A DNA stretch of 15,352 nt from Armatimonadia bacterium. GTDB lineage: Bacteria; Armatimonadota; Zipacnadia; Zipacnadales; UBA11051. The notes under the pieces are model-generated. The model did no database searches and was not told the DNA's origin. It saw only the letters and a list, made by a program, of their open reading frames with translations. Below, piece after piece: positions 3,370 through 15,352 of the stretch (within the stretch, counting starts at the first letter, position 1; every line of letters starts with the position of its first letter). The position numbers were made by a program, and so were the translations under genes. The stretch spans positions 1-15,352 of the forward strand of contig JBDKRC010000172.1 in the NCBI GenBank assembly GCA_039683575.1. Direction: 5' to 3'.

Positions 3370-4905
3370 CTACTCCTCACACCGCATCTCAACCACCTTC
3401 CCCCCCATCTCCGCCCCCTCCTCAACCCTCCCCAACAACCCCTCATAGTCCAGCCCTTCCGCCTCCAGACTCTTCACCAGCTCCGTAAACCCCACCGACG
3501 GCCGCTTCGCCAGCGCCCTCCCCAGCCTCTCATCCGACCGCGAAAACGCCGCCTGCATCCCTGCCCATCGCGCCGAATCCGTCGAGACTTCCACATGCGG
3601 CACCGATTTCAGGCTCTTCTGCACCCGCGAGAGCCAGTTCCGCAGCTCCCGCAGCGGCGGGAGCGCCTCCCGCTCGAAAGCCGTATGCGGCCGCGGCGAG
3701 AACACCCCGACATTGCACCTGAAATGCAGCCGCGGAAACGCCGCCGTCAGCCTCCGCGCCAGCGCCGTGATCTCCTCCCGGTCCTCCGCCGTTTCGGTCG
3801 GTAATCCGATCATGAGATAGAGCCGTATTCGCGTCAGTTCCGCCGTCGCCGCTCTCTCCACCGCCGCAAACAGCTCTTCCTCCGCCAATCCCTTCCCAAT
3901 CGCCTTCCGCAGCCTCTCCGTCGCCGCTTCCGGCGCATAAGTCACCGTCCGCTGTCCCCCGCGCGCCAGCAGCCGCAGCAGTTCATCCGTCGCCGATTCC
4001 AGTCGTATCGACGACGTGCTCACCTGTAGCTCCGGCGACAGCCCCTCCAGCGCCCCGCAAAGCTCCGCAAGCTCCGGGTAATCCGACACTGCCGCCGCAA
4101 TCAGCCCCACTTCCTTAGTATATTGCAGACCCCGCCGCACCGCCTCCACGATCCGCCCCACCGACCGCCACCGCTGTGGCCGGTACAGCCTCCGCGCCAG
4201 GCAGAAGCTGCAAGACCGCCCGCACCCGCGCCCGATCTCCACCAAAAACCGGTCCGCGAACTCCGCCTCGGGCGTGAGGATCACGGACGTGGTATCGAAC
4301 TCATCCAGGTTCATGGCGCACCGCCGCGCCAGCGCCCCCGCCTCCGGCCGTCCCTGGAGCTCCGGCACATAGAACCCGCGCGTCGCCGCCAGCCTCTCCA
4401 GCGTCTCCTCCCGCCTCCCCGCCGCCAGCGCCTCACGAAGCACCCCCATGGCCGGCTCAATCTCCCCTATGTAGGCCACATCATAGATCTCCGCCAACGG
4501 CAGCGGCGCCGCCGATATCGCCGGCCCGCCCACGATCACTAGTGGCCCGTCCGAACGGTCCTCGCGCAGCGGCGGCACGCCTCCGGCCTCCAAAGCCGCC
4601 GGGATGGCTGGCCAGTCCAGTTCATAGGAGGACGTTATGGCAATAGCCTCGAAATCCCGCAGCAGCGCGCGCGACTCCAGGGAACAAACCGCCGAAGAGC
4701 GGGTCGAATCCCGTGCCGGATCGACAAAAGCCCGCTCCCAAAGCATCTCCCCCGTGGCGTTCAACTCCGCATACAGCGTATGTGTCGCCAAAGAAGACAT
4801 GCCCACAGCATAGGAATGTGGGTACAGAAGGACTCCGCGCCGCGGCGCGGAACTGTTGGGGGTGGGAATGAGCAGTCGTTCGCTGTCGAGGATATCCATC
4901 CGCAT
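3370..4905 (-). CDS. Radical SAM protein with N-terminal B12-binding-like domain (~511 aa)
   Basis: 'VEIGRGCGRSCSFC' CxxxCxxC motif; 'YPHSYAVGMSSLA', 'LVIVGGPA', 'TYAPEAATERLR..IGK', 'LYLMIGLPTET' and 'FSPRPHTAF' match the TIGR03960-like group. Start 4905 or 4899. Confidence 0.9.
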   Translation of the reverse strand: MRMDILDSERLLIPTPNSSAPRRGVLLYPHSYAVGMSSLATHTLYAELNATGEMLWERAFVDPARDSTRSSAVCSLESRALLRDFEAIAITSSYELDWPAIPAALEAGGVPPLREDRSDGPLVIVGGPAISAAPLPLAEIYDVAYIGEIEPAMGVLREALAAGRREETLERLAATRGFYVPELQGRPEAGALARRCAMNLDEFDTTSVILTPEAEFADRFLVEIGRGCGRSCSFCLARRLYRPQRWRSVGRIVEAVRRGLQYTKEVGLIAAAVSDYPELAELCGALEGLSPELQVSTSSIRLESATDELLRLLARGGQRTVTYAPEAATERLRKAIGKGLAEEELFAAVERAATAELTRIRLYLMIGLPTETAEDREEITALARRLTAAFPRLHFRCNVGVFSPRPHTAFEREALPPLRELRNWLSRVQKSLKSVPHVEVSTDSARWAGMQAAFSRSDERLGRALAKRPSVGFTELVKSLEAEGLDYEGLLGRVEEGAEMGGKVVEMRCEE

Positions 4906-5041
4906 AACCAGTGCCTGACCAGCCTCAGAGTGATGTGGGGACGTGGTAACATGATACCAAAGCCCCCCACCAACAGCAACCCGCCCGCCTCACGCCGTGC
5001 CGCCTCTGGCCGTGGGTGCGCGAAGCGACGTCTGCGTCGCA

Positions 5042-5290
5042 GGGCGTCTCGCCCGCCGCCGCTACCACCGGCAAACCGTAGGCCGTCGGAGGGGCCGAGC
5101 TTCAGCCGGCCCGCCGTTATCACCGACACCCTCGGTCGCGTAGTGCGGGCGTCTCGCCCGCCGCCGTTATCACCGACAAACCCGCACGCCGTTCGGAGGG
5201 GCCGAGCTTCAGCCGGCCCGCCGTTATCACCGACACCCTTGGTCGCGTAATGCGGGCGTCTCGCCCGCCGCCGTTATCACCGACAAACCG
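5042..5290 (+). repeat. BIME-like tandem array (~105-107 bp period, ~2.4 copies) of two alternating hairpins, each followed by GCCGTTATCACCGAC
   Basis: Units start at 5042, 5147 and 5254. Hairpin A is GCGGGCG-TCT-CGCCCGC and hairpin B is GGGCCG-AGCTTCAGC-CGGCCC. Exact tails at 5113, 5163, 5220, 5270; degenerate tail at 5058. Confidence 0.9.
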
Positions 5291-5420: not shown

Positions 5421-6146
5421 ATGATTGATACCAAGAAACTGGCTCAGGCGGCAAAAACCAGCACGACCACCGGCCAAATCGAGCGCCAGATCTCGCTGCC
5501 GTGGAAAGACGCCGCCCGCATCAGCATCCGCAACGTCACCCTCCGCCTCGGACGCGCCGCCATTACCGGCGCTGGCGTAGTCCTCGGCATCGCCTTCCTG
5601 GTCTCCGTCTGGACCGGTAAGGTCGTCACCGAGGGCCTCGAGGCCGATCGCGCCAAGAGCGCCCTCAGCGTTACCCAGGTCGCTGGCGAGACCGGCGGCG
5701 CCCCCGGTGAGACCGAGGCCGCCGAAGAGATCATGCAGCGCAACGCGCGTCAGAACTGGCTCGTAGTCATGTCTCTGCTCGTATGCGGCGTCGGCATTAC
5801 CAACTCCATGCTCATGTCCGTCACCGAGCGCTTCCGCGAGATCGGAACCATGAAGTGTCTCGGTGCCCTCGACGGCTTCATCGTCCGCCTCTTCCTTATC
5901 GAATCTATTGTACTGGGCTTCCTTGGCTCGCTGGTCGGCGCTATCGTCGGCCACGTTGCCATGCTACTCATGTCCATGGCCAAAAACGGGGCCGACGTCG
6001 CCGCCAAGATGAACTGGGGACATATGGCTATGTACCTCGTCGCCTCGGTTCTGCTCGGCTGCATCCTGGCTTTCTTTGCAGCCGTAGCCCCGGCGATGCG
6101 TGCCGCCCGAATGCCGGCCGCCGCCGCACTCGCTACCGAAGTCTAG
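5421..6146 (+). CDS. Small FtsX/MacB-family (type VII ABC) permease, 241 aa, 4 predicted TM, very short extracytoplasmic loop
   Basis: 'ISIRNVTLRLGRAAIT' before TM1; FtsX-domain motif 'GITNSMLMSVTERFREIGTMKCLGA....I..LFLIES'; C-terminal 'PAMRAARMPAAAAL'. GGAG SD before ATG 5421; the ORF extension to 5250 is repeat DNA. Confidence 0.92.
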   Translation: MIDTKKLAQAAKTSTTTGQIERQISLPWKDAARISIRNVTLRLGRAAITGAGVVLGIAFLVSVWTGKVVTEGLEADRAKSALSVTQVAGETGGAPGETEAAEEIMQRNARQNWLVVMSLLVCGVGITNSMLMSVTERFREIGTMKCLGALDGFIVRLFLIESIVLGFLGSLVGAIVGHVAMLLMSMAKNGADVAAKMNWGHMAMYLVASVLLGCILAFFAAVAPAMRAARMPAAAALATEV

Positions 6147-6196
6147 AAACCTGGAACTCATCGGGACCTGACCGCTACCAAGCCTATCATAAGCCC

Positions 6197-6221
6197 GTGG
6201 GAGGGCTCTCGCAGAGCCCGA
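6197..6221 (+). repeat. GTGG-tagged REP-like hairpin
   Basis: GTGGGA-GGGCTCT-CGC-AGAGCCC-GA in the permease/ATPase intergenic region. Confidence 0.6.
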
Positions 6222-6286
6222 CCCTCCGCCTCGGCCAACCCGGCCCCGGCGCGCGACACTGCGCAACAGACGCATTGGAGGACACA

Positions 6287-7189
6287 ATGGCCAAAATCGT
6301 ATGCCCGGACTGCGGCAAAGAGATGGAAACGACCGGTATCGTGACCGTCTGTCCGGACTGCAAAGCCGACCTGAGCAAGGTTATGGAAGAGGTCGGGCGG
6401 GTCGAGCGCAAGACCAAGGCCGCCATCGCGACCGACGAGTCTGCGACCACCGCGGAGTTCATCGTCCGCACCAAGAACCTCAAGAAGATCTACAAGATGG
6501 GTGAAGTCGAAGTCCCCGCTCTCCGCGGCGTGGACCTCGCCATCCGTCGTGGTGAGTACCTCTCCATCATGGGCCCGTCCGGGTCCGGCAAGTCCACCCT
6601 CTTCAACATGGTCGGCGGCCTCGACAAGCCGTCCGAGGGCACCTGCTACATTGACGAAGTGGACATGGCCCAGCTTGACGCCGGCGAGCTCGCGTGGCTC
6701 CGCTGCCGCAAGATCGGGTACATCTTCCAGTCCTTCAACCTCATTCCCGTCATGACCGCCCTTGAGAACGTCACCCTGCCGATGATCTTCGCTGGCATGA
6801 GCTCTGACGAGATGATGGAGCGCGGCCAGATGCTCCTCGACCTCGTGGGCCTCGGCGGCCGCCTGCACCACAAGCCCTTCGAGCTTTCTGGCGGTCAGCA
6901 GCAGCGTGTGGCGGTAGCCCGCTCCCTGGCCAACAGCCCCGCGATCATCCTCGCCGACGAGCCCACCGGTAACCTCGACTTGCAGACCGGTAAGGAGATC
7001 ATCGACCTCCTCAGGGAGCTCAACTCCGGCAGCGGCGTGACGATCATCTCGGCTACCCATGACCTCAAGATGATCGACGCCTCCGACCGCATCGTGCACA
7101 TCCGTGACGGAGGCATCGAGCGCATCGAGATGCGCGCAGACATCGACCTGAAGATTGGTTCGTTCGCCGGTGCGGAGGGCGGGGAGTAA
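6287..7189 (+). CDS. ABC transporter ATP-binding protein, LolD/MacB/FtsE family, with N-terminal CxxC-x12-CxxC zinc ribbon (300 aa)
   Basis: Walker A GPSGSGKST, Q-loop 'IGYIFQSFNL', signature LSGGQQQRVA, Walker B/D-loop 'IILADEPTGNLD', H-loop 'ATHD'. GGAGGA SD before ATG 6287. N-terminus CPDCGKEMETTGIVTVCPDC. Confidence 0.95.
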   Translation: MAKIVCPDCGKEMETTGIVTVCPDCKADLSKVMEEVGRVERKTKAAIATDESATTAEFIVRTKNLKKIYKMGEVEVPALRGVDLAIRRGEYLSIMGPSGSGKSTLFNMVGGLDKPSEGTCYIDEVDMAQLDAGELAWLRCRKIGYIFQSFNLIPVMTALENVTLPMIFAGMSSDEMMERGQMLLDLVGLGGRLHHKPFELSGGQQQRVAVARSLANSPAIILADEPTGNLDLQTGKEIIDLLRELNSGSGVTIISATHDLKMIDASDRIVHIRDGGIERIEMRADIDLKIGSFAGAEGGE

Positions 7190-7276
7190 CTCTCCTTGCA
7201 GAGCCGTAAACGGCTGGGATAGAGAGCCCAGGGCGTGCGGCTGAGCAGTCGCGCGCCCTTTTGCATTCTGCTGGCC

Positions 7277-7540
7277 GGAGGGGCCGAGCTTCAGCCGGCC
7301 CTGTCGTTCTGGACACACCTGCCGCGTAGTAACCAGTCCGCCATATGGCGGAGCGACGTCTGCTGTAGGGCGAAGCGATATCTGCTGTAGGGCGGGGGCT
7401 CGTACCCCGCCGGCCGTTATCACCGACATCCTGGGTCGCCGGTAGGAGCGCTCCCCTGAGCGCGATGCCGTTATCACCGACCAACAACCAATCCGCGTAG
7501 TCCGGGCGTCTCGCCCGCTCTCGCCGTTACCATCGGCCAA
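7277..7540 (+). repeat. Cluster of REP-like hairpins with shared tail
   Basis: Hairpin B (7277-7301); 16-bp palindrome TCCGCCATATGGCGGA (7337-7352); GTAG-tagged hairpins at 7387, 7442, 7497; tails at 7413, 7467 and degenerate 7523. Confidence 0.85.
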
Positions 7541-7625
7541 CGAACTCGCACCGCCGCGCGACGATCAGCAAAAACCGCCGTACCCGCAACCTGCCCGCCA
7601 CCTAACACGAAAGTGGTGAACTGTC

Positions 7626-8630
7626 TTGCTGCACAGGTCGCGCCTTGCGCTGCCCGCGCTGTTGATACTCCTCACTCCAGCGCTGGTGCTCGCTCAGCCC
7701 TCCGGCGCCCGCGAAGACTCGGAGATGGTTCTCACCTCCGACGTCAACTACGAGAGCGTTCTGCAGTACGTACAGCAGGACCGCATGACGCGCTTCGTCG
7801 AGCAGCTCGCCTCCTTCGGCTCGCGCGTCACCGGCTATCCCGGCTGTGACCGCGCTGCCGATCTCGTGGAGCAGACCTTCCGCGACCTCGGACTGCAGGT
7901 CGAGACCGAGAAATTCTCAGTTCTCGTCCCCATGCCCAAGTTCGACGCCCAGGGCCGCCCGGCCACCCTCACCGTCGGCGGCTCCCGGCAGTTCAGCCTC
8001 CTCCCCCTCTGGCCCAACCTCGTCCAAATGCCCAAAACCCCGCCCGAAGGTCTCTCCGGCCGCCTCATCTACGCCGCCAAGGGCGATCTGCAGGCCTTCA
8101 ACGGTCTCGACGTCGCGGACAGCATCGTCATGCTCGACTTCGACTCCGGCCGGGAGTGGTTCAACGCCCCGCTCCTCGGCGCCAAGGCCGTCCTCTTCAT
8201 CGAGCCCCGCGAGACCATCCGCGGCGAGGCCGAACAGAAATTCCTCTCCATGCCTGTCAGCATCCCCCGCTTCTGGGTCCCCAAGGAGACCGCCGACCTG
8301 CTGCAGGGCATGATCGCCCAGCAGGGCGAGGTTAACGTCAACGTCTTCTGCGACATCGACTGGCAGAAGGTCACCGGCAAAAACATCCTCGCCCATCTCA
8401 AGGGCACCGATTCGCGCCTCAGCAAGCAGCAAGTCGTCATGCAGGCCTACTACGATTCCATCTCCATCGCCCCGGTGCTCGCTCCCGGCGCCGAAAACGC
8501 CTGCAGCATCGCCGCCCTGATGGAGCTCGCCCGCGCCTTCAAGGCCCACCCGCCCAAGCGCAGCGTCACCTTCCTCGCCACCTCCGGCCACTTCGAGGCC
8601 ATGGCTGGCGAAAAGGCCTTCCTCGCCTAG
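7626..8630 (+). CDS. N-terminal fragment under the standard code: signal peptide + PA domain + first part of M28-like domain (334 aa)
   Basis: Signal 'MLHRSRLALPALLILLTPALVLA'; 'SRVTGYPG...AA'; PA-like 'GRLIYAAKG...GAKAVLFIE'; 'NILAHLKG...AYYDS...APGAENACSIAALMELAR...RSVTFLATSGH'. Confidence 0.6.
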   Translation: MLHRSRLALPALLILLTPALVLAQPSGAREDSEMVLTSDVNYESVLQYVQQDRMTRFVEQLASFGSRVTGYPGCDRAADLVEQTFRDLGLQVETEKFSVLVPMPKFDAQGRPATLTVGGSRQFSLLPLWPNLVQMPKTPPEGLSGRLIYAAKGDLQAFNGLDVADSIVMLDFDSGREWFNAPLLGAKAVLFIEPRETIRGEAEQKFLSMPVSIPRFWVPKETADLLQGMIAQQGEVNVNVFCDIDWQKVTGKNILAHLKGTDSRLSKQQVVMQAYYDSISIAPVLAPGAENACSIAALMELARAFKAHPPKRSVTFLATSGHFEAMAGEKAFLA

Positions 8631-8984
8631 CGCTTCCGCGGCGCCCGCAGCGAAAAGTCCGTCAAGAAGCTCTATGACCTCGTCCGCCAGAGCCGCCGCG
8701 GCCTCGACGAAGCCGCCGCGAGCGTCTGGGAAGAGGAACTCCCCTCCGCCGACGCCGAGCCCAAGACCCCCGATCAGATCGCTGAGGAGCGCGTCCGCGC
8801 CCTCGGCCGCATCGCTCGGGCCGTCCGTCAGGCCGAAAAGAAGCTCCACGCCGCCGAGCGCACCGCCGTCCGCGCCAAGCGCTACGACCCCAACCGCGGC
8901 AAGCTCTACGAGCGCAAGCTCGACGAATCCGAGCTCCAGCGCCGCACGCAGCTCATCGGCGCCCTCGAGACTGCCCTGCCCGCG

Positions 8985-11900
8985 ATGAAGTCCTCCCTCG
9001 CCCAGCTCAAGGGGCTCCTCGACCAGGCCAGGCCCCTGCGCCGCCAGGCCGATACCGCCCAGCGCGAGGCGGCCCTCGCCGGCATCCAGAAGGCCATCTT
9101 CGACTCCAGCGACGCCATGGACTTCTCCGCCGACGACATCTCCCTCTGGCTCTCCGTAGACCTCTCCAGCCACAACCAGTCCTGCGGCGTCTTCTTCAAG
9201 GGCTACTTCTACAACTACCGCGAAGACATCCAGTGGAAGTACTCCCAGATCGGCAAGAAGTGCCGCGAGTACGCCGACATCGTCTCCCGCTACATGGCCG
9301 TCCCCTCCGGCAGCCGCTTCGTGGACGGCATCAACGCCCTCAAGGGCAAGAACTGGCAGACCTACATGTCGGGCAAGCTCGCCCTGGGCAATGAGGTCGC
9401 CACCATCGCCGGCGTCCCCGCCGTCGGGTTCGCCACCATCAACGACTCCCGCCCCTGGGTAGACACGCCCCTCGACCTGCCCAAGCACGTGGACTTCCGC
9501 AACCTCTACGACCAGACCGCCTTCCTCGCCTGCCTCCTGCAGGACATGGTCAGCATCAGCGAGCCCCGCGACCTCTACGACCTCGAACTCGAAGACAACT
9601 TCGTCGAGGTCAAGGGCCGCCTCGTGCTCTTCGATCCTGAAGTCAGCACCTTCCCTGACGAGCCCATCCCCAGTGCCGTAGCCGTCGCCCGCACCGGCCA
9701 GCGAACCGCCATGGGCGTGCGCTGCGAAGTCTTCGACAAGGTCGGCACCGACGGCCGCCTCCACCTCCTCGGTCTCCCCAACGTCCGCACCAAGGGCGGA
9801 GACGTCCCCATCGAGGGCTACCTCCTCGACCCCAGGGACGGCCACGTCTCGATGGCCCCCGACATGGGCGTCAATGGCAACGAAGCCTATCCCTTCAAGG
9901 TCAAGCTCGACCAGGACATCAAGCCCGTCACCTGTGTCATGTTCAACTGCCTGCCCATGGCAATCTTTGACATGGTCGACCAGCGCTTCTTCCAGCTCCT
10001 GCGCGAGATCCATGTCTACGACGCCCAGACCGACGCCACCCCCTACCAGTACGGCTACTGCCTGCCGCTGCCGGCCCAGCAATTCGAATCTTCCTACGAG
10101 CCCGTCGCACTCGTCTTCGCCCCCGCCGGGACCAAGCTCAAGCTCACCATGGGCGCGAGCGTTCTCGGCCTGCGCTTCGTGCTCGTCAACCCCACCGCCA
10201 AGAACAACGAGGGCGAAGGTTACCTCATCGATAACCACCCCTCGATGTACGCCACGCCCTTCCTCGTCGCCCGCGACATGATCGACCTCGACGATCTGCG
10301 CATCAAGGGCCTCGAATCCCACGGCATCAAGAACAGCCGCGTCAAGCGCGCCCACCAGCAGGGCCTTGAATACCTCACGGCCGCCAGCGGCTTCCTCAAG
10401 GATCGCCTCTACGATCGCTTCCTCACTGCCGCCCGCTCGGCCTGGAGCTTTGAATCCCGCGCCTATCCCGACGTCCGCTCCACTGGCAATGATGTCATCA
10501 AGGGCGTGCTCTTCTACCTCGCCATGCTCATGCCGTTCGCCTTCTTCGCCGAACGCCTCATGATCGGCTCGCCCGACATCAAGTGGCAGATCCTCGGCTT
10601 CTTCGGCATCTTCATGGCCGTCTTCTTGCTCCTTGCCCTCGTGCATCCGGCCTTCGCCATCACCTTCACACCAGTCATCATCCTGCTCGCCTTCATCATC
10701 CTCGCCCTCACGATCGTCGTCACGAGCATCATCGTGCAGAAGTTTGAGGAGCAGATGAAGGAGATGCGCTACGAGCAGACCGGCATCCGCACCGCGGACG
10801 TCGGCCGCCTCGGCGCCTCCGCCGCGGCCTTCAGTCTCGGCATCTCCAACATGCGCCGCCGCAAGGTCCGCACGATTCTCACCTGTTTCACCCTCGTGCT
10901 CCTGACCTTCACCGTCCTCTCCTGCACCTCCGTGGTCACCGGAGTGCGCACCAACCGCATCCTCCTGCCCTACAAAGCCCCCTATGAGGGCATCATGATC
11001 CGCGACAAAACCTGGGAGCCCATCGGCGAACCCACCGCCCGGGTCATGCGCAATGAATTCTCCGATCCCAACACCTACGCCGTCGCCCCCCGCGCCTGGT
11101 ACTTCTCCAGCAAGGTCGGCGACCAGTCCTTCGTGGATGTAGCCAACGGTGGCGCCGTCTACTCCGCCACTGCCATGGTCGGCATGTCACCCGAAGAGGC
11201 CCAGGTCTCTCGCCCGCAGGATGCCCTCCTCAAGGGCGGTACCTGGTTCACCAAGGGCGAGACACTAACGTGCATCATCCCTGAGGCAATGGCTGAGAAG
11301 CTGAACATCACTCCCGAAGACGCCGCCGCGGGCGCCAAATCCGTCAACGTCTTCGGCGTCCAGCTCCGCGTCATCGGCATCATGGACAGCAGCAAGCTCA
11401 AGAAGATCGTGGACCTCGACGGCGAGCCCATCACGCCTGTTGACTACCTCCTCATGCAGGAGCAGCAGCAACAGCAGCAGCAGGCCGGCGACAAGATGAG
11501 TGAGGACGAGCTGCGCGAGTACATCCATCTCGCCCCCGACAGCACCTTCTTCGTCCACTACGACTTCCTCATCGGACAGGGCGGCCAGCTCCGCTCCGTC
11601 GGCATTGCCATGAAGGACAAGGCCCTCGTCCAAAAGAACCTCGACGAGCTGATGTCCCGCATCGAGCTCAACCTCTATGGTGGCATGGGCGGCCGGACCT
11701 TCCTGTGCAGCGCCGTCTCGCAGACGGGCTTCAAGAACATCCAGGACCTCATCATCCCGGTCCTCATCGCCGCCATGATCTGTCTCAACACCATGCTCGG
11801 CTCTGTCTACGAGCGCGTGCGTGAAATCTACATCTACAGCTCGCTCGGCCTCGCGCCCACCCACATCGCCCTCCTCTTCATCGCGGAAGCTGCGGTGTAC

Positions 11901-12602
11901 GCCATCCTCGGCGCGGTCGCGGGCTACCTCTTCGGACAGGTCCTCTCCAAGGTCCTGCTCGAAACCGGCCTGCTTGCGGGCCTCAACCTCAACTACTCGT
12001 CACTCTCCGCCGTTGGCGCCACCCTGGTCATCATGGTCACGGTGCTGCTCTCGGTCATCTACCCCGCCCGCCGCGCCTCGGAAATCGCCTCCCCGGGCAT
12101 CGAGCGCCGTTGGCACCTGCCCGAGCCCAAGGGCGACACCATCGACATGTCCCTGCCCTTCACGGTAACCGGCGACCAGGCTCTCGGCGTGAACATGTTC
12201 CTCAACGAGTATCTCGCGGCCCACGCCGACTACTCTCTCGGCAACTTCTCCACGGCCGACATCAGCCTGAAGACCGTGGACAGCGAGTACGGCGAGGGCT
12301 ACGAGCAGGGCCTGATGGTCTGGCTGGCGCCGTATGACCTGGGCGTCTCCGAGCGCCTCTACCTCCGCACCCTGCCGACCGAGGAGGCCGAGGTCTACCA
12401 GATCCACGCAATGATAGTCCGCGAAAGCGGCGACCAGTCATCATGGATGCGAGTGACGCGCAACTTCATCAACATGCTGCGCAAACAGTACCTGCTCTGG
12501 CGCACCTTCCCAGCCGGCCTGAAGGGCGACTACGGCCACCGCGGCCTCGCCATGCTGAACAACGAGCCAGCCAAGCCCAACACCGGCAAAGAAACCGGCT
12601 AG
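8985..12602 (+). CDS. C-terminal fragment under the standard code: extracytoplasmic region, 3 TM, then MacB/FtsX-type permease and C-terminal tail (1205 aa)
   Basis: 'SNMRRRKVRTILT' before permease TM1; FtsX motif 'LNTMLGSVYERVREIYIYSSLGL.P..I..LFIAEA'; 'YPARRAS'. ATG 8985 is probably not a true start. Confidence 0.65.
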   Translation: MKSSLAQLKGLLDQARPLRRQADTAQREAALAGIQKAIFDSSDAMDFSADDISLWLSVDLSSHNQSCGVFFKGYFYNYREDIQWKYSQIGKKCREYADIVSRYMAVPSGSRFVDGINALKGKNWQTYMSGKLALGNEVATIAGVPAVGFATINDSRPWVDTPLDLPKHVDFRNLYDQTAFLACLLQDMVSISEPRDLYDLELEDNFVEVKGRLVLFDPEVSTFPDEPIPSAVAVARTGQRTAMGVRCEVFDKVGTDGRLHLLGLPNVRTKGGDVPIEGYLLDPRDGHVSMAPDMGVNGNEAYPFKVKLDQDIKPVTCVMFNCLPMAIFDMVDQRFFQLLREIHVYDAQTDATPYQYGYCLPLPAQQFESSYEPVALVFAPAGTKLKLTMGASVLGLRFVLVNPTAKNNEGEGYLIDNHPSMYATPFLVARDMIDLDDLRIKGLESHGIKNSRVKRAHQQGLEYLTAASGFLKDRLYDRFLTAARSAWSFESRAYPDVRSTGNDVIKGVLFYLAMLMPFAFFAERLMIGSPDIKWQILGFFGIFMAVFLLLALVHPAFAITFTPVIILLAFIILALTIVVTSIIVQKFEEQMKEMRYEQTGIRTADVGRLGASAAAFSLGISNMRRRKVRTILTCFTLVLLTFTVLSCTSVVTGVRTNRILLPYKAPYEGIMIRDKTWEPIGEPTARVMRNEFSDPNTYAVAPRAWYFSSKVGDQSFVDVANGGAVYSATAMVGMSPEEAQVSRPQDALLKGGTWFTKGETLTCIIPEAMAEKLNITPEDAAAGAKSVNVFGVQLRVIGIMDSSKLKKIVDLDGEPITPVDYLLMQEQQQQQQQAGDKMSEDELREYIHLAPDSTFFVHYDFLIGQGGQLRSVGIAMKDKALVQKNLDELMSRIELNLYGGMGGRTFLCSAVSQTGFKNIQDLIIPVLIAAMICLNTMLGSVYERVREIYIYSSLGLAPTHIALLFIAEAAVYAILGAVAGYLFGQVLSKVLLETGLLAGLNLNYSSLSAVGATLVIMVTVLLSVIYPARRASEIASPGIERRWHLPEPKGDTIDMSLPFTVTGDQALGVNMFLNEYLAAHADYSLGNFSTADISLKTVDSEYGEGYEQGLMVWLAPYDLGVSERLYLRTLPTEEAEVYQIHAMIVRESGDQSSWMRVTRNFINMLRKQYLLWRTFPAGLKGDYGHRGLAMLNNEPAKPNTGKETG

Positions 12603-12619
12603 TGTCTCAGGCCGTCCAG

Positions 12620-12904
12620 GCTGTAGGGCGGGGGCTCGTACCCCGCCGGCCGTTATCACCGACATCCTGGGTCGCGGGTAGGAGCGCTCCCCTGAGCGCG
12701 ACGCCGTCATCACCGACCAACAATGCGCGCCCCGAAGGGGCCATCGCCTATCGCAGGGGCCGAATGCGGACAGCCTAACACCCCGCATCCGGCCCACCGG
12801 CGACGACTTACAACTCTCTTCGTAGGACGGGCGTCTCGCCCGTCACCGTACCGCCATCCGGCTGTAGGGCGGGGGCTCGTACCCCGCCGGCCGTTATCAC
12901 CGAC
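12620..12904 (+). repeat. Cluster of REP-like hairpins with shared tail
   Basis: 12620-12723 matches 7384-7487 at 101/104 nt. Further GTAG hairpins at 12822 and 12864; tails at 12649, 12703, 12890. Segment 12710-12795 resembles 15150-15235. Confidence 0.9.
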
Positions 12905-12949
12905 CAACTGTCGCGCCGTTTCCGAATCGCCGTCTCTCGCCTTTACCAT

Positions 12950-12977
12950 TCAACGATCAACGATCAACGATCAACCA
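12950..12977 (+). repeat. Heptamer tandem repeat (TCAACGA)x3 + TCAACCA
   Basis: Read directly; ends ~10 nt upstream of the GGAGG SD of the next gene. Confidence 0.8.
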
Positions 12978-12998
12978 GCCTTTCCGCGGAGGCAAAAA

Positions 12999-14984
12999 GT
13001 GGCGCACATAGACCCCGAACTCGCACTTTATCGAGACTTGATGGAAGTCCCGGACAAGTTCGAGGAAGGCTTCGATATCAAGTCCGTCATCGGCGCGATC
13101 TTCGTCGGCTTCGTCATGATGCCCGGCGCGATCTACCTCGGCCTTGTCGCCGGGCAGTCTCTCGGACCCGCCGCGGAGTGGACCACTATCATCCTCTTCA
13201 CCGAGGTTGCGCGCCGCTCGTTCATCACGCTCAAGCGCCAGGAAATCTACATCCTCTTCTACATCGCGTCCTCGCTAACGGGCACGATCGGTGGCTTGCA
13301 GCTTGCTGGCGGTGCTTTCGCCGGAAAGATCTGGGACCAGTATTTCGTCCGCTCCCCGGCGGCTGAAGGTATGGGTATCGCGTCTCAGGTGCCCACCTGG
13401 GTCGTCCCGCCCCCCACCTCCGAAGCCATCATGCACCGTACGTTCCTCCATGCCGACTGGCTCATCCCCGGCGCGATTTTGCTCCTGGGCACGCTCCTCG
13501 GCCGTATGAACTGGTTCGGCCTCGGCTACGTACTGTTCCGCATCACCTCTGACTACGAGAAGCTCCCGTTCCCCTTCGCGGCCATCACGGCGCAGGGCTC
13601 GACGGCTCTGGCGGAAGCCACCTCCAAGGAGGAGACCTGGCGCTGGCGCACCTTCTCCATCGGCGCCATGGTCGGTCTGGTCTTCGGCACCTTCTACGTG
13701 GGTATCCCCACGATCACCGGCGCCATCATGACCGAGCCGCTGCAGCTTCTGCCGATCCCGTGGGTTGATCTCACCCGCACCACCGCCTCAATCCTGCCCG
13801 CGGTGCCCACCGGCTTCGTCACCGACCTCGGCACCGTCGGCTCCGGGTTCGTGGTGCCTTACTGGGCGGTGGTCGGCAGCTTCATTTCGGCCATCGGCAC
13901 CTTCATTCTCAACCCCTGGCTCTACCGGCACGGCATCCTGGTCCGCTGGAAGCCCGAGATGGGCACCATCGAGACGCAGTTTAACAATACGGTGGACTTC
14001 TACTTCAGCATCGGGATTGGCGTTTCGTTCGCGGTGGCCGCCATCGGTATCGGCACCATCATCATCCAGCTCATCCGTGACGCCAAGCACAGGCAGCGCG
14101 GAGAGAAGACCGAACGTTCGTGGAAGCCACCGGCAGGCCGTGGCGACCTCCCAATGTGGATTGCCATCGCGCTCTTCGTCGTCTCGACCATCGGCTATGT
14201 CATCCTGTGCTGGGCGCTCGTCCCCAAGTTCCCGCTGATCTACGTGATCCTGTTCGGGTTCGTGCTCACGCCGTTAAACTCGTACATCGACGCCCGCATG
14301 ATCGGTCTGACTGGACAGTGGGTTGGGATCCCGATGGTCAAGGAAGCCGCCATCATCAAGAGCGGCTACCGGGGCATAGATATCTGGTTCGCACCTATTC
14401 CAAACTTCGACCACGGCGCGCAGGCGATGCGCTTCCGCGTGCTGGAGCTAACGGGCACGAGGGTCACGGGCCTCATCAAGGCCGAGCTTTTGATCTGGCC
14501 GATCACGATCTTCTGCAGCCTGCTGTTCTGGCAGTTCATCTGGCGCCTCGCGCCGATCCCGTCCATCTACTACCCGTACGCCCAGAAGATGTGGCACATG
14601 CAGGCCCTGCAGCGCGGCCTGTGGATGACCTCGACGATCAACCCGGAGACCAGCCTGTTCTACAAGGCCTGGAACCTGGACCGGGCAATCTGGGGCTTCG
14701 TCTTCGGCATCGGGTCATACATGATCCTGGCGCGACTGCGCTTACCGATCATGCTCATCTATGGAATTGTGCGTGGCCTGGGGACGTTGCCCCATTCCAT
14801 CTTCCCGGAGATGATCGGGGCGCTGATCAGCCAGTACTACTTCGTCCCACGCTTCGGCGCCAAACGCTGGAAGCAGTACGCCACGGTACTAATGGCGGGC
14901 TACTCCTGCGGCATGGGCCTCATCGGCATGGGCACAGTAGCGATAGCCATGGTCAGTAAATCGGTCTCGCAAATGCCCTACTAG
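12999..14984 (+). CDS. Polytopic membrane protein, OPT/YSL-like putative peptide transporter (661 aa)
   Basis: GGAGG SD (12988-12992) before GTG 12999; many hydrophobic segments over the whole length; 'IYLGLVAG', 'LKRQEIYIL', 'DYEKLPFP.A...A', 'PIPS..YPY' resemble OPT-like family motifs (e.g. the 'L.FP' motif). Family call is by eye. Confidence 0.8.
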   Translation: MAHIDPELALYRDLMEVPDKFEEGFDIKSVIGAIFVGFVMMPGAIYLGLVAGQSLGPAAEWTTIILFTEVARRSFITLKRQEIYILFYIASSLTGTIGGLQLAGGAFAGKIWDQYFVRSPAAEGMGIASQVPTWVVPPPTSEAIMHRTFLHADWLIPGAILLLGTLLGRMNWFGLGYVLFRITSDYEKLPFPFAAITAQGSTALAEATSKEETWRWRTFSIGAMVGLVFGTFYVGIPTITGAIMTEPLQLLPIPWVDLTRTTASILPAVPTGFVTDLGTVGSGFVVPYWAVVGSFISAIGTFILNPWLYRHGILVRWKPEMGTIETQFNNTVDFYFSIGIGVSFAVAAIGIGTIIIQLIRDAKHRQRGEKTERSWKPPAGRGDLPMWIAIALFVVSTIGYVILCWALVPKFPLIYVILFGFVLTPLNSYIDARMIGLTGQWVGIPMVKEAAIIKSGYRGIDIWFAPIPNFDHGAQAMRFRVLELTGTRVTGLIKAELLIWPITIFCSLLFWQFIWRLAPIPSIYYPYAQKMWHMQALQRGLWMTSTINPETSLFYKAWNLDRAIWGFVFGIGSYMILARLRLPIMLIYGIVRGLGTLPHSIFPEMIGALISQYYFVPRFGAKRWKQYATVLMAGYSCGMGLIGMGTVAIAMVSKSVSQMPY

Positions 14985-15008: not shown

Positions 15009-15274
15009 GTAGGCATGCTCCGCATGCCGGACCCAGTCTTAGATCCGCGTAGTGCGGGCGTCCCGCCCGCCGTCGTTGTCACCGACCAACCAACGCGTCC
15101 GCCGCTTCCTTCTGAACCAACCTGTACGAGCGATCACCGATCGCGACCGTCACCGACCAACAATTTGCGCCCCGGAGGGGCCATCGCCTTCCGGAGGGGC
15201 CGAATGCCGACAGCCTCACCGTCTGCATCCGGCCCGCCGTAATCACCGACAACGCGTAGTGCGGGCGTCCCGCC
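15009..15274 (+). repeat. Cluster of REP-like hairpins with shared tail, downstream of the operon
   Basis: GTA-GGCATGC-TCC-GCATGCC (15009-15028); GTAGT-GCGGGCG-TCC-CGCCCGC (15049 on); tails at 15072 and 15236; the last hairpin at 15256 is truncated. Confidence 0.8.
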
Positions 15275-15352
15275 AGTAGTGCCTCACAAAAAACCTAGAC
15301 ACCTTAGCTGGGCCTTTGTGGGCTGCTCCCAGAGCCGTTCGCGCAGTTTTAG

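Follow-up and report, generated by a model that had tools for sequence, protein, structure and literature searches.

The window analysed here, a 15,352-nucleotide stretch of DNA from an uncultured Armatimonadia bacterium, contains four co-oriented genes on the + strand, referred to as A, B, C and D, and ORF calls, profile searches and direct-repeat families agree with a sequence-only reading of this DNA that the spacers between them are filled with repeats. These REP-like direct repeats, to which no strand is assigned, lie between A and a divergent radical SAM gene (5032–5289; repeat families D1, D3, D4 and D7), between B and C (7276–7539; D7, D2, D1 and D3), between C and D (12620–12964; D2, D5 and D3) and 3′ of D (15046–15283; D1, D3 and D5), and their units give 200–253 partial blastn matches spread over >100 contigs of this genome. 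Directly 3′ of B, on the + strand, is a terminator-like hairpin (7230–7259; a 13-bp stem with nine G-C pairs and a T-rich tail, recognised by consensus match alone), which is consistent with the evolutionary separability of A-B from C-D described below, and the locus may comprise two transcription units, A-B and C-D. The remaining ORFs of the window encode an NmrA-like protein, a methyltransferase, a DUF1559 pilin-like protein and the radical SAM protein, the last being kept as a neighbour in one family only; as the sequence-only reading had stated, a profile search finds no substrate-binding protein, adaptor or outer-membrane factor among them.

Gene A (5421–6146, +) encodes a minimal FtsX-fold protein of 241 residues (Pfam FtsX, 6.9e-19, 68.5 bits). 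Its outer domain is nearly absent: a hydrophobicity scan of this FtsX permease predicts four transmembrane (TM) segments and only ~45 residues between TM1 and TM2, and the protein scores far below the NCBIfam cut-offs of FtsX, LolC/E and MacB. Its identity is 51–80% in 19 of 20 relatives' loci, the twentieth locus beginning within B. Gene B (6287–7189, +) encodes a 300-residue ABC ATPase (ABC_tran, 108.9 bits) that sequence comparison places firmly in the LolD/MacB/FtsE clade, with LolD as its best NCBIfam match (229.2 bits, cut-off 307.75) and FtsE at 203.4 bits (cut-off 264.85); its identity is 76–93% in all 20 relatives' loci. The N-terminus of B is a zinc-ribbon module (6287–6373, +) of the form CPxC ... 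VCPxC (CxxC...CxxC), the cysteines of which (C6, C9, C22 and C25) are invariant in all 11 aligned sequences, namely nine B orthologues and two ZnTM proteins encoded beside a paralogous giant.

Gene C (7626–12602, +) encodes the giant subunit in a 1658-codon frame with one interruption, and matches Pfam Peptidase_M28 (38 bits) and FtsX (52 bits). The sequence-only reading had described a PA/M28-like and permease fusion of ~1658 residues; the domain composition stands, but the frame is not open, as codon 335 is an in-frame TAG (8628–8630, +), the only stop within it, so that the longest open pieces are 334 residues and 1323 codons (1205 residues counted from the first ATG). Orthologues of C are single open frames of 1653–1714 residues in 20 of 20 relatives' loci, that of genome G002 being 82% identical, and alignment places a sense codon for R, K, E, D, Q or N at the TAG position in all 20. 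In the contigs of all three metagenome runs that cover base 8628, which belong to one study and are ~98.5% identical, this base is A, giving AAG (Lys). The TAG is private to this assembly, so this copy of C is either freshly broken or mis-called.

C starts with a putative signal peptide read from the sequence (7626–7697, +), a hydrophobic stretch ending in ...LVLAQ, and all aligned C orthologues share such an N-terminal hydrophobic stretch. There follow a PA domain and the first part of an M28-like fold with an altered metal site (7740–8627, +; model, Foldseek and HMM alignment), a coiled-coil-like insertion of four long helices inside this fold (8640–9116, +; residues 345–369, 383–420, 435–473 and 478–498 by DSSP of the model) and the second part of the fold with the invariant D512 L S S (9144–9548, +; alignment, model and residue mapping). 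The insertion is present in all C orthologues and is much shorter in the paralogue C′. The model of the head (pLDDT 78.7, pTM 0.78) retrieves 2ek8 (2.9e-18), 6hc6, 8ac7, TfR1 and GCPII in Foldseek, with probability 1.0 for the bacterial PA-M28 aminopeptidases, TfR1 and GCPII. HMM alignment to 2ek8 and 6hc6 sets aYYds opposite SHHDS and sGhfe opposite GAEEN, and residue mapping gives Y275, Y276, D277, E290, H322 and F323 (window numbering) at the metal site, the altered residues being invariant in 21–25 sequences. Model and alignment together show a predicted PA/M28 aminopeptidase fold that lacks the catalytic Glu-Glu pair and one zinc-binding His, which bears out the giant pseudo-peptidase ectodomain proposed earlier.

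Between head and membrane the model contains a β-rich domain of unassigned kind (9600–10202, +; strands within residues 660–853, at lower confidence with pLDDT blocks of 36–89) and a stalk of three long helices running to the membrane (10254–10487, +; residues 878–955). A hydrophobicity scan places three extra, very conserved TM helices (10494–10733, +) N-terminal to the FtsX/MacB-type module, and many of their alignment columns are invariant, C′ included. The module itself (10872–12059, +; Pfam FtsX and hydrophobicity scan) consists of TM1, an outer domain (10929–11729) and TM2–TM4, so that sequence profiles firmly assign one FtsX-fold membrane module to A and one to C. The C-terminus is a conserved cytoplasmic domain of ~175 residues (12072–12596, +) with invariant columns and a WLAPYDLGVS motif, for which no Pfam family was matched.

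Gene D (12999–14984, +) encodes a polytopic membrane protein of 661 residues, read from a GTG at 12999 in agreement with homologue lengths; a start at the first ATG of the ORF (12723) was rejected. The D model (pLDDT 80.9, pTM 0.83) matches at E≤0.001 only barley Yellow Stripe 1 (YS1; PDB 7WSR/7WST, 2.3e-12), full-length with TM-scores of 0.63–0.70 and an identity of 12–13%, so that D has, by its model, the fold of the OPT superfamily (TC 2.A.67), in keeping with the OPT-like protein of the sequence-only reading. Comparison with DUF6785 by hhalign gives 87.8% probability, and relatives of D carry the NCBI label 'peptide transporter'. Pfam and NCBIfam profile searches assign no family to D itself, and PF03169 (OPT) is matched by three of 39 D-family members (best 1.5e-9). 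Among the profiles that the sequence-only reading had named, FtsX (A and C) and Peptidase_M28 (C) were thus found at the locus, OPT in those relatives and not in D, and MacB_PCD in relatives only (22.3 bits in C′, below the cut-off of 27, and 35 bits in P0232).

The four genes recur together elsewhere, as a neighbourhood comparison proposed with that reading now shows: the order A-B-C-D is found, to the extent of each contig, in all 20 relatives' loci, and complete in 28 of 55 public loci, the others being cut by contig ends with the same order (nine), a bare C fragment (one) or otherwise arranged (17). The giant family occurs in 170 of 201 genomes of the phylum at E≤1e-50 and comprises 1447 representative clusters at E≤1e-30. 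The parts are also separable. Genus g4 has A-B alone in four of four fetched loci, its sole giant being a C′ located elsewhere (both fetched C′ loci of the genus); Fervidibacter-type loci have C-D without A-B (8/8), in Thermosaccharophagus-type loci the fetched flanks of C contain no D (4/4), and paralogues of D (D′) are solitary in five of five loci. The best explanation is that the locus holds one copy of an envelope machine that is conserved in Armatimonadota, is uncharacterised and is also found in Desantisbacteria and Latescibacterota; literature searches found no published description of such a system, as the sequence-only reading had supposed.

The paralogous giant C′ adjoins DUF6785/6784 permeases in eight of nine loci, the exception being L107, and no A or B lies within the fetched flanks in five of five loci. 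Genome G000, which has one A and one ribbon-bearing B, contains ~23 DUF6785 genes without an adjacent giant. The solitary D′ genes and L107 indicate that adjacency of giant and permease is not obligatory. A third, diverged cluster has the order DUF6785-C″-D″-A″-B″-B″ (two genomes), and in Desantisbacteria A-B-DUF6785-C′-D stand in a row. In a sister subfamily, sequence matches show giant and OPT-superfamily permease to be one predicted polypeptide: P0222 of Latescibacterota (2120 residues), one among the best 150 of the giant-family representatives, is a natural fusion of a giant module, FtsX, DUF6785 (9e-120) and DUF6784, in which DUF6785 begins ~24 residues past the conserved cytoplasmic C-terminal domain. 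Its cluster has 56 members, and fusions of this type lie on different contigs, with at least four full-length 2120-residue copies and one 2083-residue NCBI record. The fusion partner is of the DUF6785 type and not D, and the Latescibacterota giant, which has no detectable M28 match, is not C; a search for longer, fused forms of D or of the DUF6785 neighbour found none, which is weak evidence. At the level of sequence, C′ synteny, the third cluster and the natural fusion give independent support for a functional link of the giant FtsX protein to a permease of the OPT superfamily.

As a whole, the locus is best explained, with a probability of roughly 55%, as a type VII ABC mechanotransducer that is asymmetric and coupled to an OPT-fold permease. 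A would pair with C, the heterodimer that the sequence-only reading had also proposed, giving a membrane base of two dissimilar modules on a dimer of B, comparable to LolC/LolE or to BceB with its unequal halves. To our knowledge, FtsX-fold dimers have no substrate or transmembrane pore of their own, and for this reason ATP binding and hydrolysis would move the outer domains of C (mechanotransmission), with D, docked on C, as the only real route across the membrane. With its altered catalytic site, the head may bind a ligand or act as a gate, working on or passing on a peptide-like ligand carried by D; the sequence-only reading had suggested that it might capture a peptide, protein or polymer and transfer this to D. 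Import is the favoured direction, and the same A-B motor probably also powers C′, which lies beside DUF6785/6784 without an ATPase of its own.

Among characterised systems, LolCDE likewise has two different FtsX-fold permease genes and one LolD-like ATPase gene, but B and A remain below the respective cut-offs (A at 31.5 bits, cut-off 362), A has nearly no outer domain, B carries a zinc ribbon, and C has in addition a head of ~930 residues, three TM helices beyond the FtsX module and a tail in the cytoplasm. BceAB similarly pairs FtsX-fold units with and without a large outer domain, but in BceB both are one polypeptide with a small outer domain, and neither a peptidase-like head nor an OPT partner is present. 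We know of no OPT member with an ABC motor. The transferrin receptor and nicalin, both sequence and fold matches of the C head (TfR1 for the former), use a non-catalytic aminopeptidase-like ectodomain for binding or gating within a membrane complex, and nicastrin is likewise a non-catalytic M28/PA-fold membrane protein; the transferrin receptor and nicalin are, however, eukaryotic and single-pass, whereas the C head contains inserted helices and forms one protein with an ABC permease.

The rival that survives best, though unlikely, is a cell-wall mechanotransducer similar to FtsEX-EnvC, in which the motor would move the built-in coiled coil and dead-metallopeptidase module of C, this module would activate a separate peptidoglycan hydrolase or bind the wall, and D would import released (muro)peptides or be linked just loosely. 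FtsEX-EnvC and FtsEX-PcsB/RipC/CwlO, type VII ABC systems that regulate peptidoglycan hydrolases, also combine an FtsX-fold module with an FtsE/LolD-clade ATPase, and the force that they transmit reaches a coiled coil outside the membrane to which a metallopeptidase-like domain without catalytic activity is attached. With its long helical insertion and altered metallopeptidase fold, the C head is formally similar to EnvC with its coiled coil and degenerate LytM domain (see PMC7668044). LysM on some members of the giant family suggests a role at the cell wall more than one in nutrient uptake: P0137 matches LysM (4.5e-16) and, weakly, an NMB0315-like domain, and 19% of an Atlas cluster of 1863-residue relatives have LysM. 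However, a Pfam search finds no LysM in the window's C, the dead peptidase is M28/PA rather than LytM/M23 and is fused to the permease, and the locus has two unequal permease genes and a conserved OPT-fold partner. Elsewhere the genome encodes a canonical FtsE at 273.6 bits (cut-off 264.85) and a canonical FtsX at 251.5 bits (cut-off 225), A and B fall below those cut-offs, and the 20 relatives' and 55 public loci share no conserved hydrolase gene within the cluster. Atlas look-alikes (scores 0.83–0.98, leads only) are also placed in archaea, which have no peptidoglycan.

Less likely still is an extrusion machine similar to the MacB pump, in which D (or Sec) would carry a molecule over the inner membrane, the ABC part would expel it from the periplasm or outer leaflet, and the tall helical-bundle head would replace the missing adaptor. 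The outer part of C, with ~930 residues and four long helices in the model, could span the periplasm, and the window has neither adaptor nor outer-membrane factor. MacAB-TolC and YbbAP-TesA share the MacB-type mechanotransmission module, and the characterised type VII ABC systems are all known to work outward or on periplasmic partners (see the MacB review PMC5985334 and the YbbAP-TesA paper PMC12646458); YbbAP is a MacB-type motor able to work with an attached enzyme (PMC12646458). Our cluster differs from MacAB-TolC and YbbAP-TesA in having no adaptor, outer-membrane factor or hydrolase gene, and in having a secondary-transporter fold as partner. OPT-superfamily members characterised so far are importers, including the only solved relative of D, the iron-phytosiderophore importer YS1, and next to the cluster the 20 relatives' and 55 public loci show no conserved genes for making an exported product, the radical SAM gene being confined to its one family. 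It is least likely of all that A-B-C and D are independent transporters sharing an operon, for example both for peptide nutrition, as the solitary D′ genes, the Thermosaccharophagus-type C without D and the lone DUF6785 genes of G000 would allow, since A-B-C alone, without a substrate pore in an FtsX-fold dimer, would be no transporter, and giant and permease are paired in three paralogous clusters that have diverged and in two further phyla, as a single polypeptide in Latescibacterota.

The locus is a real, well-conserved and uncharacterised system, a variant of the type VII ABC machines that carries an OPT-fold partner. It lies in a 6.2 Mb metagenome-assembled genome that is 96% complete and of which the window is one entire contig; the names borne by homologues and related loci assign it to Armatimonadota. 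Four plus-strand genes make up the cluster: A (5421–6146, 241 aa), a minimal permease matching Pfam FtsX; B (6287–7189, 300 aa), a zinc-ribbon ATPase with an ABC_tran match of 108.9 bits; C (7626–12602, a frame of 1658 codons), a giant subunit with matches to Peptidase_M28 and FtsX; and D (12999–14984, 661 aa), a membrane protein with no Pfam or NCBIfam family of its own. This composition of four co-oriented genes had been proposed, correctly, in the sequence-only reading. The same reading saw no substrate-binding protein, adaptor or outer-membrane factor, and a family scan of the window's other genes (an NmrA-like protein, a methyltransferase, a DUF1559 pilin-like protein and a B12/radical SAM protein) likewise finds none.

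The A-B-C-D order is kept, as far as the contigs reach, in all 20 loci of relatives from the window's own family and the other families of its order. An orthologue of C (at least 54% identity) is present in 28 of 40 relatives; 11 of the 12 that lack one belong to two genera (g3 and g4), and one is a genome that is 71% complete. A public scan, limited to one genome per species, yielded 629 relatives among 649 candidate stretches, from which 55 loci were kept. All four genes stand in the A-B-C-D order in 28 of these, nine are cut by a contig end with their visible genes in the same order, and one is a bare C fragment; eight are of a Fervidibacter type with C-D only, their upstream flanks of up to 10 kb lacking A-B, four of a Thermosaccharophagus type with C alone, four hold C′, a paralogous giant, and one, from Desantisbacteria, has A-B-DUF6785-C′-D in a row. 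At E ≤ 1e-50 the giant family occurs in 170 of 201 sampled genomes of the phylum (144 of the 174 of high quality), and a profile of its membrane half recovers 1447 representative clusters at E ≤ 1e-30 from 1.84 billion proteins.

A, B and C fall into the type VII ABC superfamily, whose members (MacB, LolCDE, FtsEX, BceAB and YbbAP) form a small set of force-transmitting machines. The four-helix FtsX module (PF02687, cut-off 25.5 bits) is matched by A at 68.5 and by C at 52 bits. A has four transmembrane segments, and about 45 low-complexity residues occupy the site of the outer domain in FtsX-fold proteins. B is the partner ATPase of the MacB/LolD/FtsE clade, its top NCBIfam matches being LolD, YbbA, DarD, MacB and FtsE at 203–229 bits, all below their cut-offs. 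The cysteines of its zinc ribbon are invariant in nine of nine aligned orthologues, and the same four-cysteine ribbon stands at the N-terminus of ZnTM, a small membrane protein whose gene lies beside C′ (two of two aligned). P0232, a distant database relative of the giant, has a weak zinc-ribbon match at its own C-terminus.

The three proteins fall short of the curated thresholds for LolCDE, FtsEX and MacB. For LolCDE, B scores 229.2 bits against a LolD cut-off of 307.75, and A and C score 31.5 and 17.3 against 362.45 for LolC/E; for FtsEX, B reaches 203.4 of 264.85 (FtsE) and A 41.4 of 255 (FtsX). For MacAB-TolC, MacB scores of 213.7, 47.2 and 18.8 bits compare with a cut-off of 966, and no adaptor or outer-membrane factor family was found in the window. 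A-B can thus be rejected as LolCDE or MacB, since the scores fall below the curated cut-offs, and as the cell's FtsEX, since a canonical FtsE/FtsX pair that passes its cut-offs is encoded elsewhere in the source genome (G000:C3). The earlier statement that no characterised system of this composition is known agrees with the full-text literature found: papers on type VII ABC systems, mechanotransmission, FtsX, pseudo-peptidases and OPT proteins all concern known systems, a search for FtsX with M28 in Armatimonadetes returned unrelated papers only, and no paper on DUF6785/DUF6784 was found. The Fervidibacter sacchari paper names a hypothetical protein of the ‘OPT superfamily’ that is expressed, along with M28 peptidases; it does not link them, and they could not be matched to C or D orthologues.

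C contains a single FtsX module, with approximately 267 residues between TM1 and TM2, preceded by three extra and highly conserved transmembrane helices. MacB_PCD (PF12704), the family that covers the Porter and Sabre subdomains, is not matched by C; among its relatives, C′ scores 22.3 bits (below the cut-off of 27) and P0232 35 bits. At its C-terminus lies a cytoplasmic domain of ~175 residues that is very strongly conserved and matches no Pfam family.

The outer part was modelled on the orthologue from a relative (G002, residues 1–956, 25 aligned sequences; pLDDT 78.7, pTM 0.78). For the head of this model, Foldseek puts M28 aminopeptidases of bacteria that contain a PA domain first (2ek8 at 2.9e-18, followed by 6hc6 and 8ac7), with the transferrin receptor and GCPII ranking after them, and a profile search of solved structures returns the same families plus nicalin (2ek8 at 2e-13). 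Together with a PF04389 match of 38 bits (cut-off 21.3) over profile positions 1–65 of 193, this shows that the head of C has the M28 fold with a PA insertion.

Catalytic residues of active M28 aminopeptidases, by contrast, are missing from the head. The co-catalytic zinc ligands and the catalytic Glu of M28 enzymes are H-x-D, D, E-E, D and H. When aligned to 2ek8 and 6hc6, HHDS/AHYDS corresponds to aYYds, so that the zinc-binding His of H-x-D becomes Tyr, and AEEN/AEEL corresponds to Ghfe, the Glu-Glu pair (general base and ligand) being replaced by His-Phe; the PGAxD motif reads PGAEN in the structure-profile alignment, and the last two metal ligands were judged by eye only. The replacing residues (Y, Y, H and F) vary little or not at all across 21–25 sequences of orthologues and the paralogue; the site is remodelled and conserved and has not decayed. 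The M28-like fold contains an insertion of four long helices, the counterpart in C′ being much shorter, and beyond the head the model shows a β-rich domain of lower confidence and a three-helix stalk. Extra outer modules occur on two database relatives, a LysM and an NMB0315-like domain on P0137 (2451 aa) and a bacterial Ig-like Big_5 domain on P0151 (3053 aa), suggesting that the head serves as a platform decorated differently by lineage.

D has the OPT/YSL fold. Its model (pLDDT 80.9, pTM 0.83) matches only barley Yellow Stripe 1 (7wst at 2.3e-12 and 7wsr at 3.9e-11, TM 0.63–0.70), the next structure falling to E 7e-3 and TM ~0.1. By sequence D is remote from OPT proteins (PF03169, TC 2.A.67): it has no match to the family at E ≤ 0.01, three of 39 members of the D family do (best 1.5e-9), nothing in the whole source genome matches it, and a sequence-profile search of solved structures gives no match at E ≤ 10. 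D is a distant relative of DUF6785/DUF6784 and not a member; PF20581 and PF20580 do not match it and pairwise BLASTP against a DUF6785 protein is not significant (E 0.10), whilst profile-profile comparison (hhalign) with 19 DUF6785 proteins of its own genome gives 87.8% probability and E 3.3e-6 over 456 columns. PF20581 has 25 matches in the source genome, in about 23 genes, and the scanned copies also carry DUF6784 (e.g. L035–L042). Some of these copies adjoin polysaccharide-lyase-like and β-helix proteins (contig C40), neighbours that hint at a role in the uptake of glycans or oligomers.

Besides C and D, the source genome encodes a further giant, C′ (1574 aa, with 44% identity to C), and a further D-type gene (53% identical to D), but only one A and one ribbon-bearing B. 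Ahead of C′ lie one or two DUF6785/DUF6784 genes and the divergent ZnTM gene (L033:4415–5242, minus strand, 275 aa, on contig C40 in the source genome) in five of five genomes, an arrangement that recurs in three of the four C′ loci of the public scan; no A or B gene is present in the flanks of the five fetched C′ loci. In genus g4, A-B stands alone beside the radical SAM gene (four of four loci) and C′ is the only giant. A third, diverged cluster, found in two genomes of another family (L043, G018:C62; L044, G028:C103), has the layout DUF6785-C″-D″-A″-B″-B″, that is, DUF6785, giant, D-like protein, small FtsX and two tandem ATPase genes. In family f29 the genes that come after a giant of 2030–2243 aa encode a D-like protein, a 301-aa protein, a 623-aa FtsX protein and an ATPase; the long frames of these giants were considered as OPT fusions and rejected, Pfam showing merely larger giants. 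Since A-B and the giant with its OPT-fold permease are found together or apart, they behave as two modules, a motor and a working end.

The strongest evidence that the giant and a permease act as one functional unit is a natural fusion, although of the DUF6785 type and not of D. Among the 150 best representatives, P0222 (2120 aa) is the one that runs on past the cytoplasmic tail of the giant and, after some 24 residues, continues into DUF6785 (9e-120) and then DUF6784 (3.2e-29). Its 90% cluster has 56 members, and among those listed are four of 2120 aa (P0222 and three others) and one NCBI record of 2083 aa from Ca. Latescibacterota, the 2120-aa copies and the 2083-aa record sitting on different contigs. 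The head of P0222 has no Pfam M28 match. Longer, fused forms of D or of the DUF6785 neighbour of C′ were not found, which is weak evidence. A complex prediction, run without controls, of D with the membrane pieces of C (residues 1–185 and 440–565 of its C-terminal half, as two chains) scored 0.28, under the mark of 0.32, and counts neither for nor against a contact.

In type VII ABC systems the binding of ATP is converted into movement of outer domains, one ATPase is bound per FtsX module, and the FtsX-fold pair has no transmembrane pore. A would pair with C: an A2B2 assembly would lack any outer part to set in motion, and where C′ is the only giant alongside A-B, it would need them. D would provide the membrane pathway, and the head of C would bind or gate the ligand. 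Import of a peptide-like ligand is favoured, given the origin of the head in an aminopeptidase and the fact that the OPT members characterised so far import their substrates. With a probability of about one in three, the system is a hybrid transport machine of a hitherto undescribed type: a type VII ABC mechanotransducer powered by ATP (A:C seated on a dimer of B) is permanently docked to D, or to DUF6785 for the paralogue, the non-catalytic aminopeptidase-like head catches, strips or gates a peptide-like ligand for the permease, and several giant-permease pairs in a cell share a single A-B motor. The permease heterodimer and the hand-off from receptor to OPT-like channel suggested earlier from the sequence are reasonable but unproven.

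The main rival to the favoured reading is a role in the cell wall akin to that of FtsEX-EnvC, with which the coiled coil and dead metallopeptidase of C and the LysM domain of some family members would fit; against it, the cluster lacks a conserved hydrolase gene and the canonical FtsEX lies elsewhere in the genome. Further rivals are extrusion in the manner of MacB and two independent transporters that do no more than share one operon. Conserved synteny and a natural fusion tie a type VII ABC motor to an OPT-fold permease, with a remodelled aminopeptidase head aboard. Each new type of partner of the type VII ABC systems has brought new envelope biology to light; should the parts here work together as a single machine, ABC mechanotransmission would for the first time be linked to a secondary transporter, and a function would be at hand for the divergent OPT and large DUF6785/6784 families, the latter with its ~23 copies in this genome alone.

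The window is useful in that it has the motor genes A and B in cis with those of the giant and permease, and its copy of C carries a stop codon in an otherwise conserved system. This single in-frame TAG (8628–8630) does not figure in the sequence-only reading. At this variable position all 20 relatives have a sense codon (CGC/CGG, AAG, GAG/GAA, GAC, CAA/CAG or AAC), and metagenome contigs from all three runs that cover the site, which belong to a single wastewater study and depart from the window at ~9 of 651 bases, have A at 8628 (AAG, Lys) and in no case T. The TAG is thus private to this assembly, and the same observations exclude a recoded codon. The remainder of C is intact and 82% identical to its nearest orthologue, and the four-helix insertion of the head starts a few residues past the site. 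The stop is either a nonsense allele of very recent origin or an error in the consensus. C and D are both missing from two sister genera, so loss of C is biologically possible, and the TAG could be an early step of gene loss as the alternative to an error.

Every spacer of the cluster is filled with short G+C-rich palindromic units and several direct-repeat families (5032–5289, 7276–7539, 12620–12964 and 15046–15283 in the repeat search), whilst the counterpart spacers of relatives measure only ~50–450 nt. The units give 200–253 partial blastn matches on more than 100 contigs of the source genome and, as RNA, would fold into stable hairpins of −35 to −42 kcal/mol; their scatter identifies them as dispersed REP-like elements. 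A sigma-70-like promoter scan gave no sites and is uninformative for this phylum. The B12-binding radical SAM gene (3370–4905, minus strand; TIGR03960-like, 226 bits, below the cut-off of 462.3) is divergent and adjoins A in the window and in loci of family f1, including those with A-B alone. In other families it is not found in the fetched stretch upstream of A (~0.5–3.2 kb), and as it adjoins A only in f1 it was rejected as a member of the system. A hairpin follows B (7230–7259) and fits the encoding of A-B apart from the giant and permease. Between the methyltransferase and pilin-like genes lies an inverted repeat (2243–2336) whose perfect 31-nt arms enclose a loop of 32 nt. GC skew is strongly negative throughout the contig, ranging from −0.05 to −0.39 per 1-kb window, although most long genes are on the plus strand.
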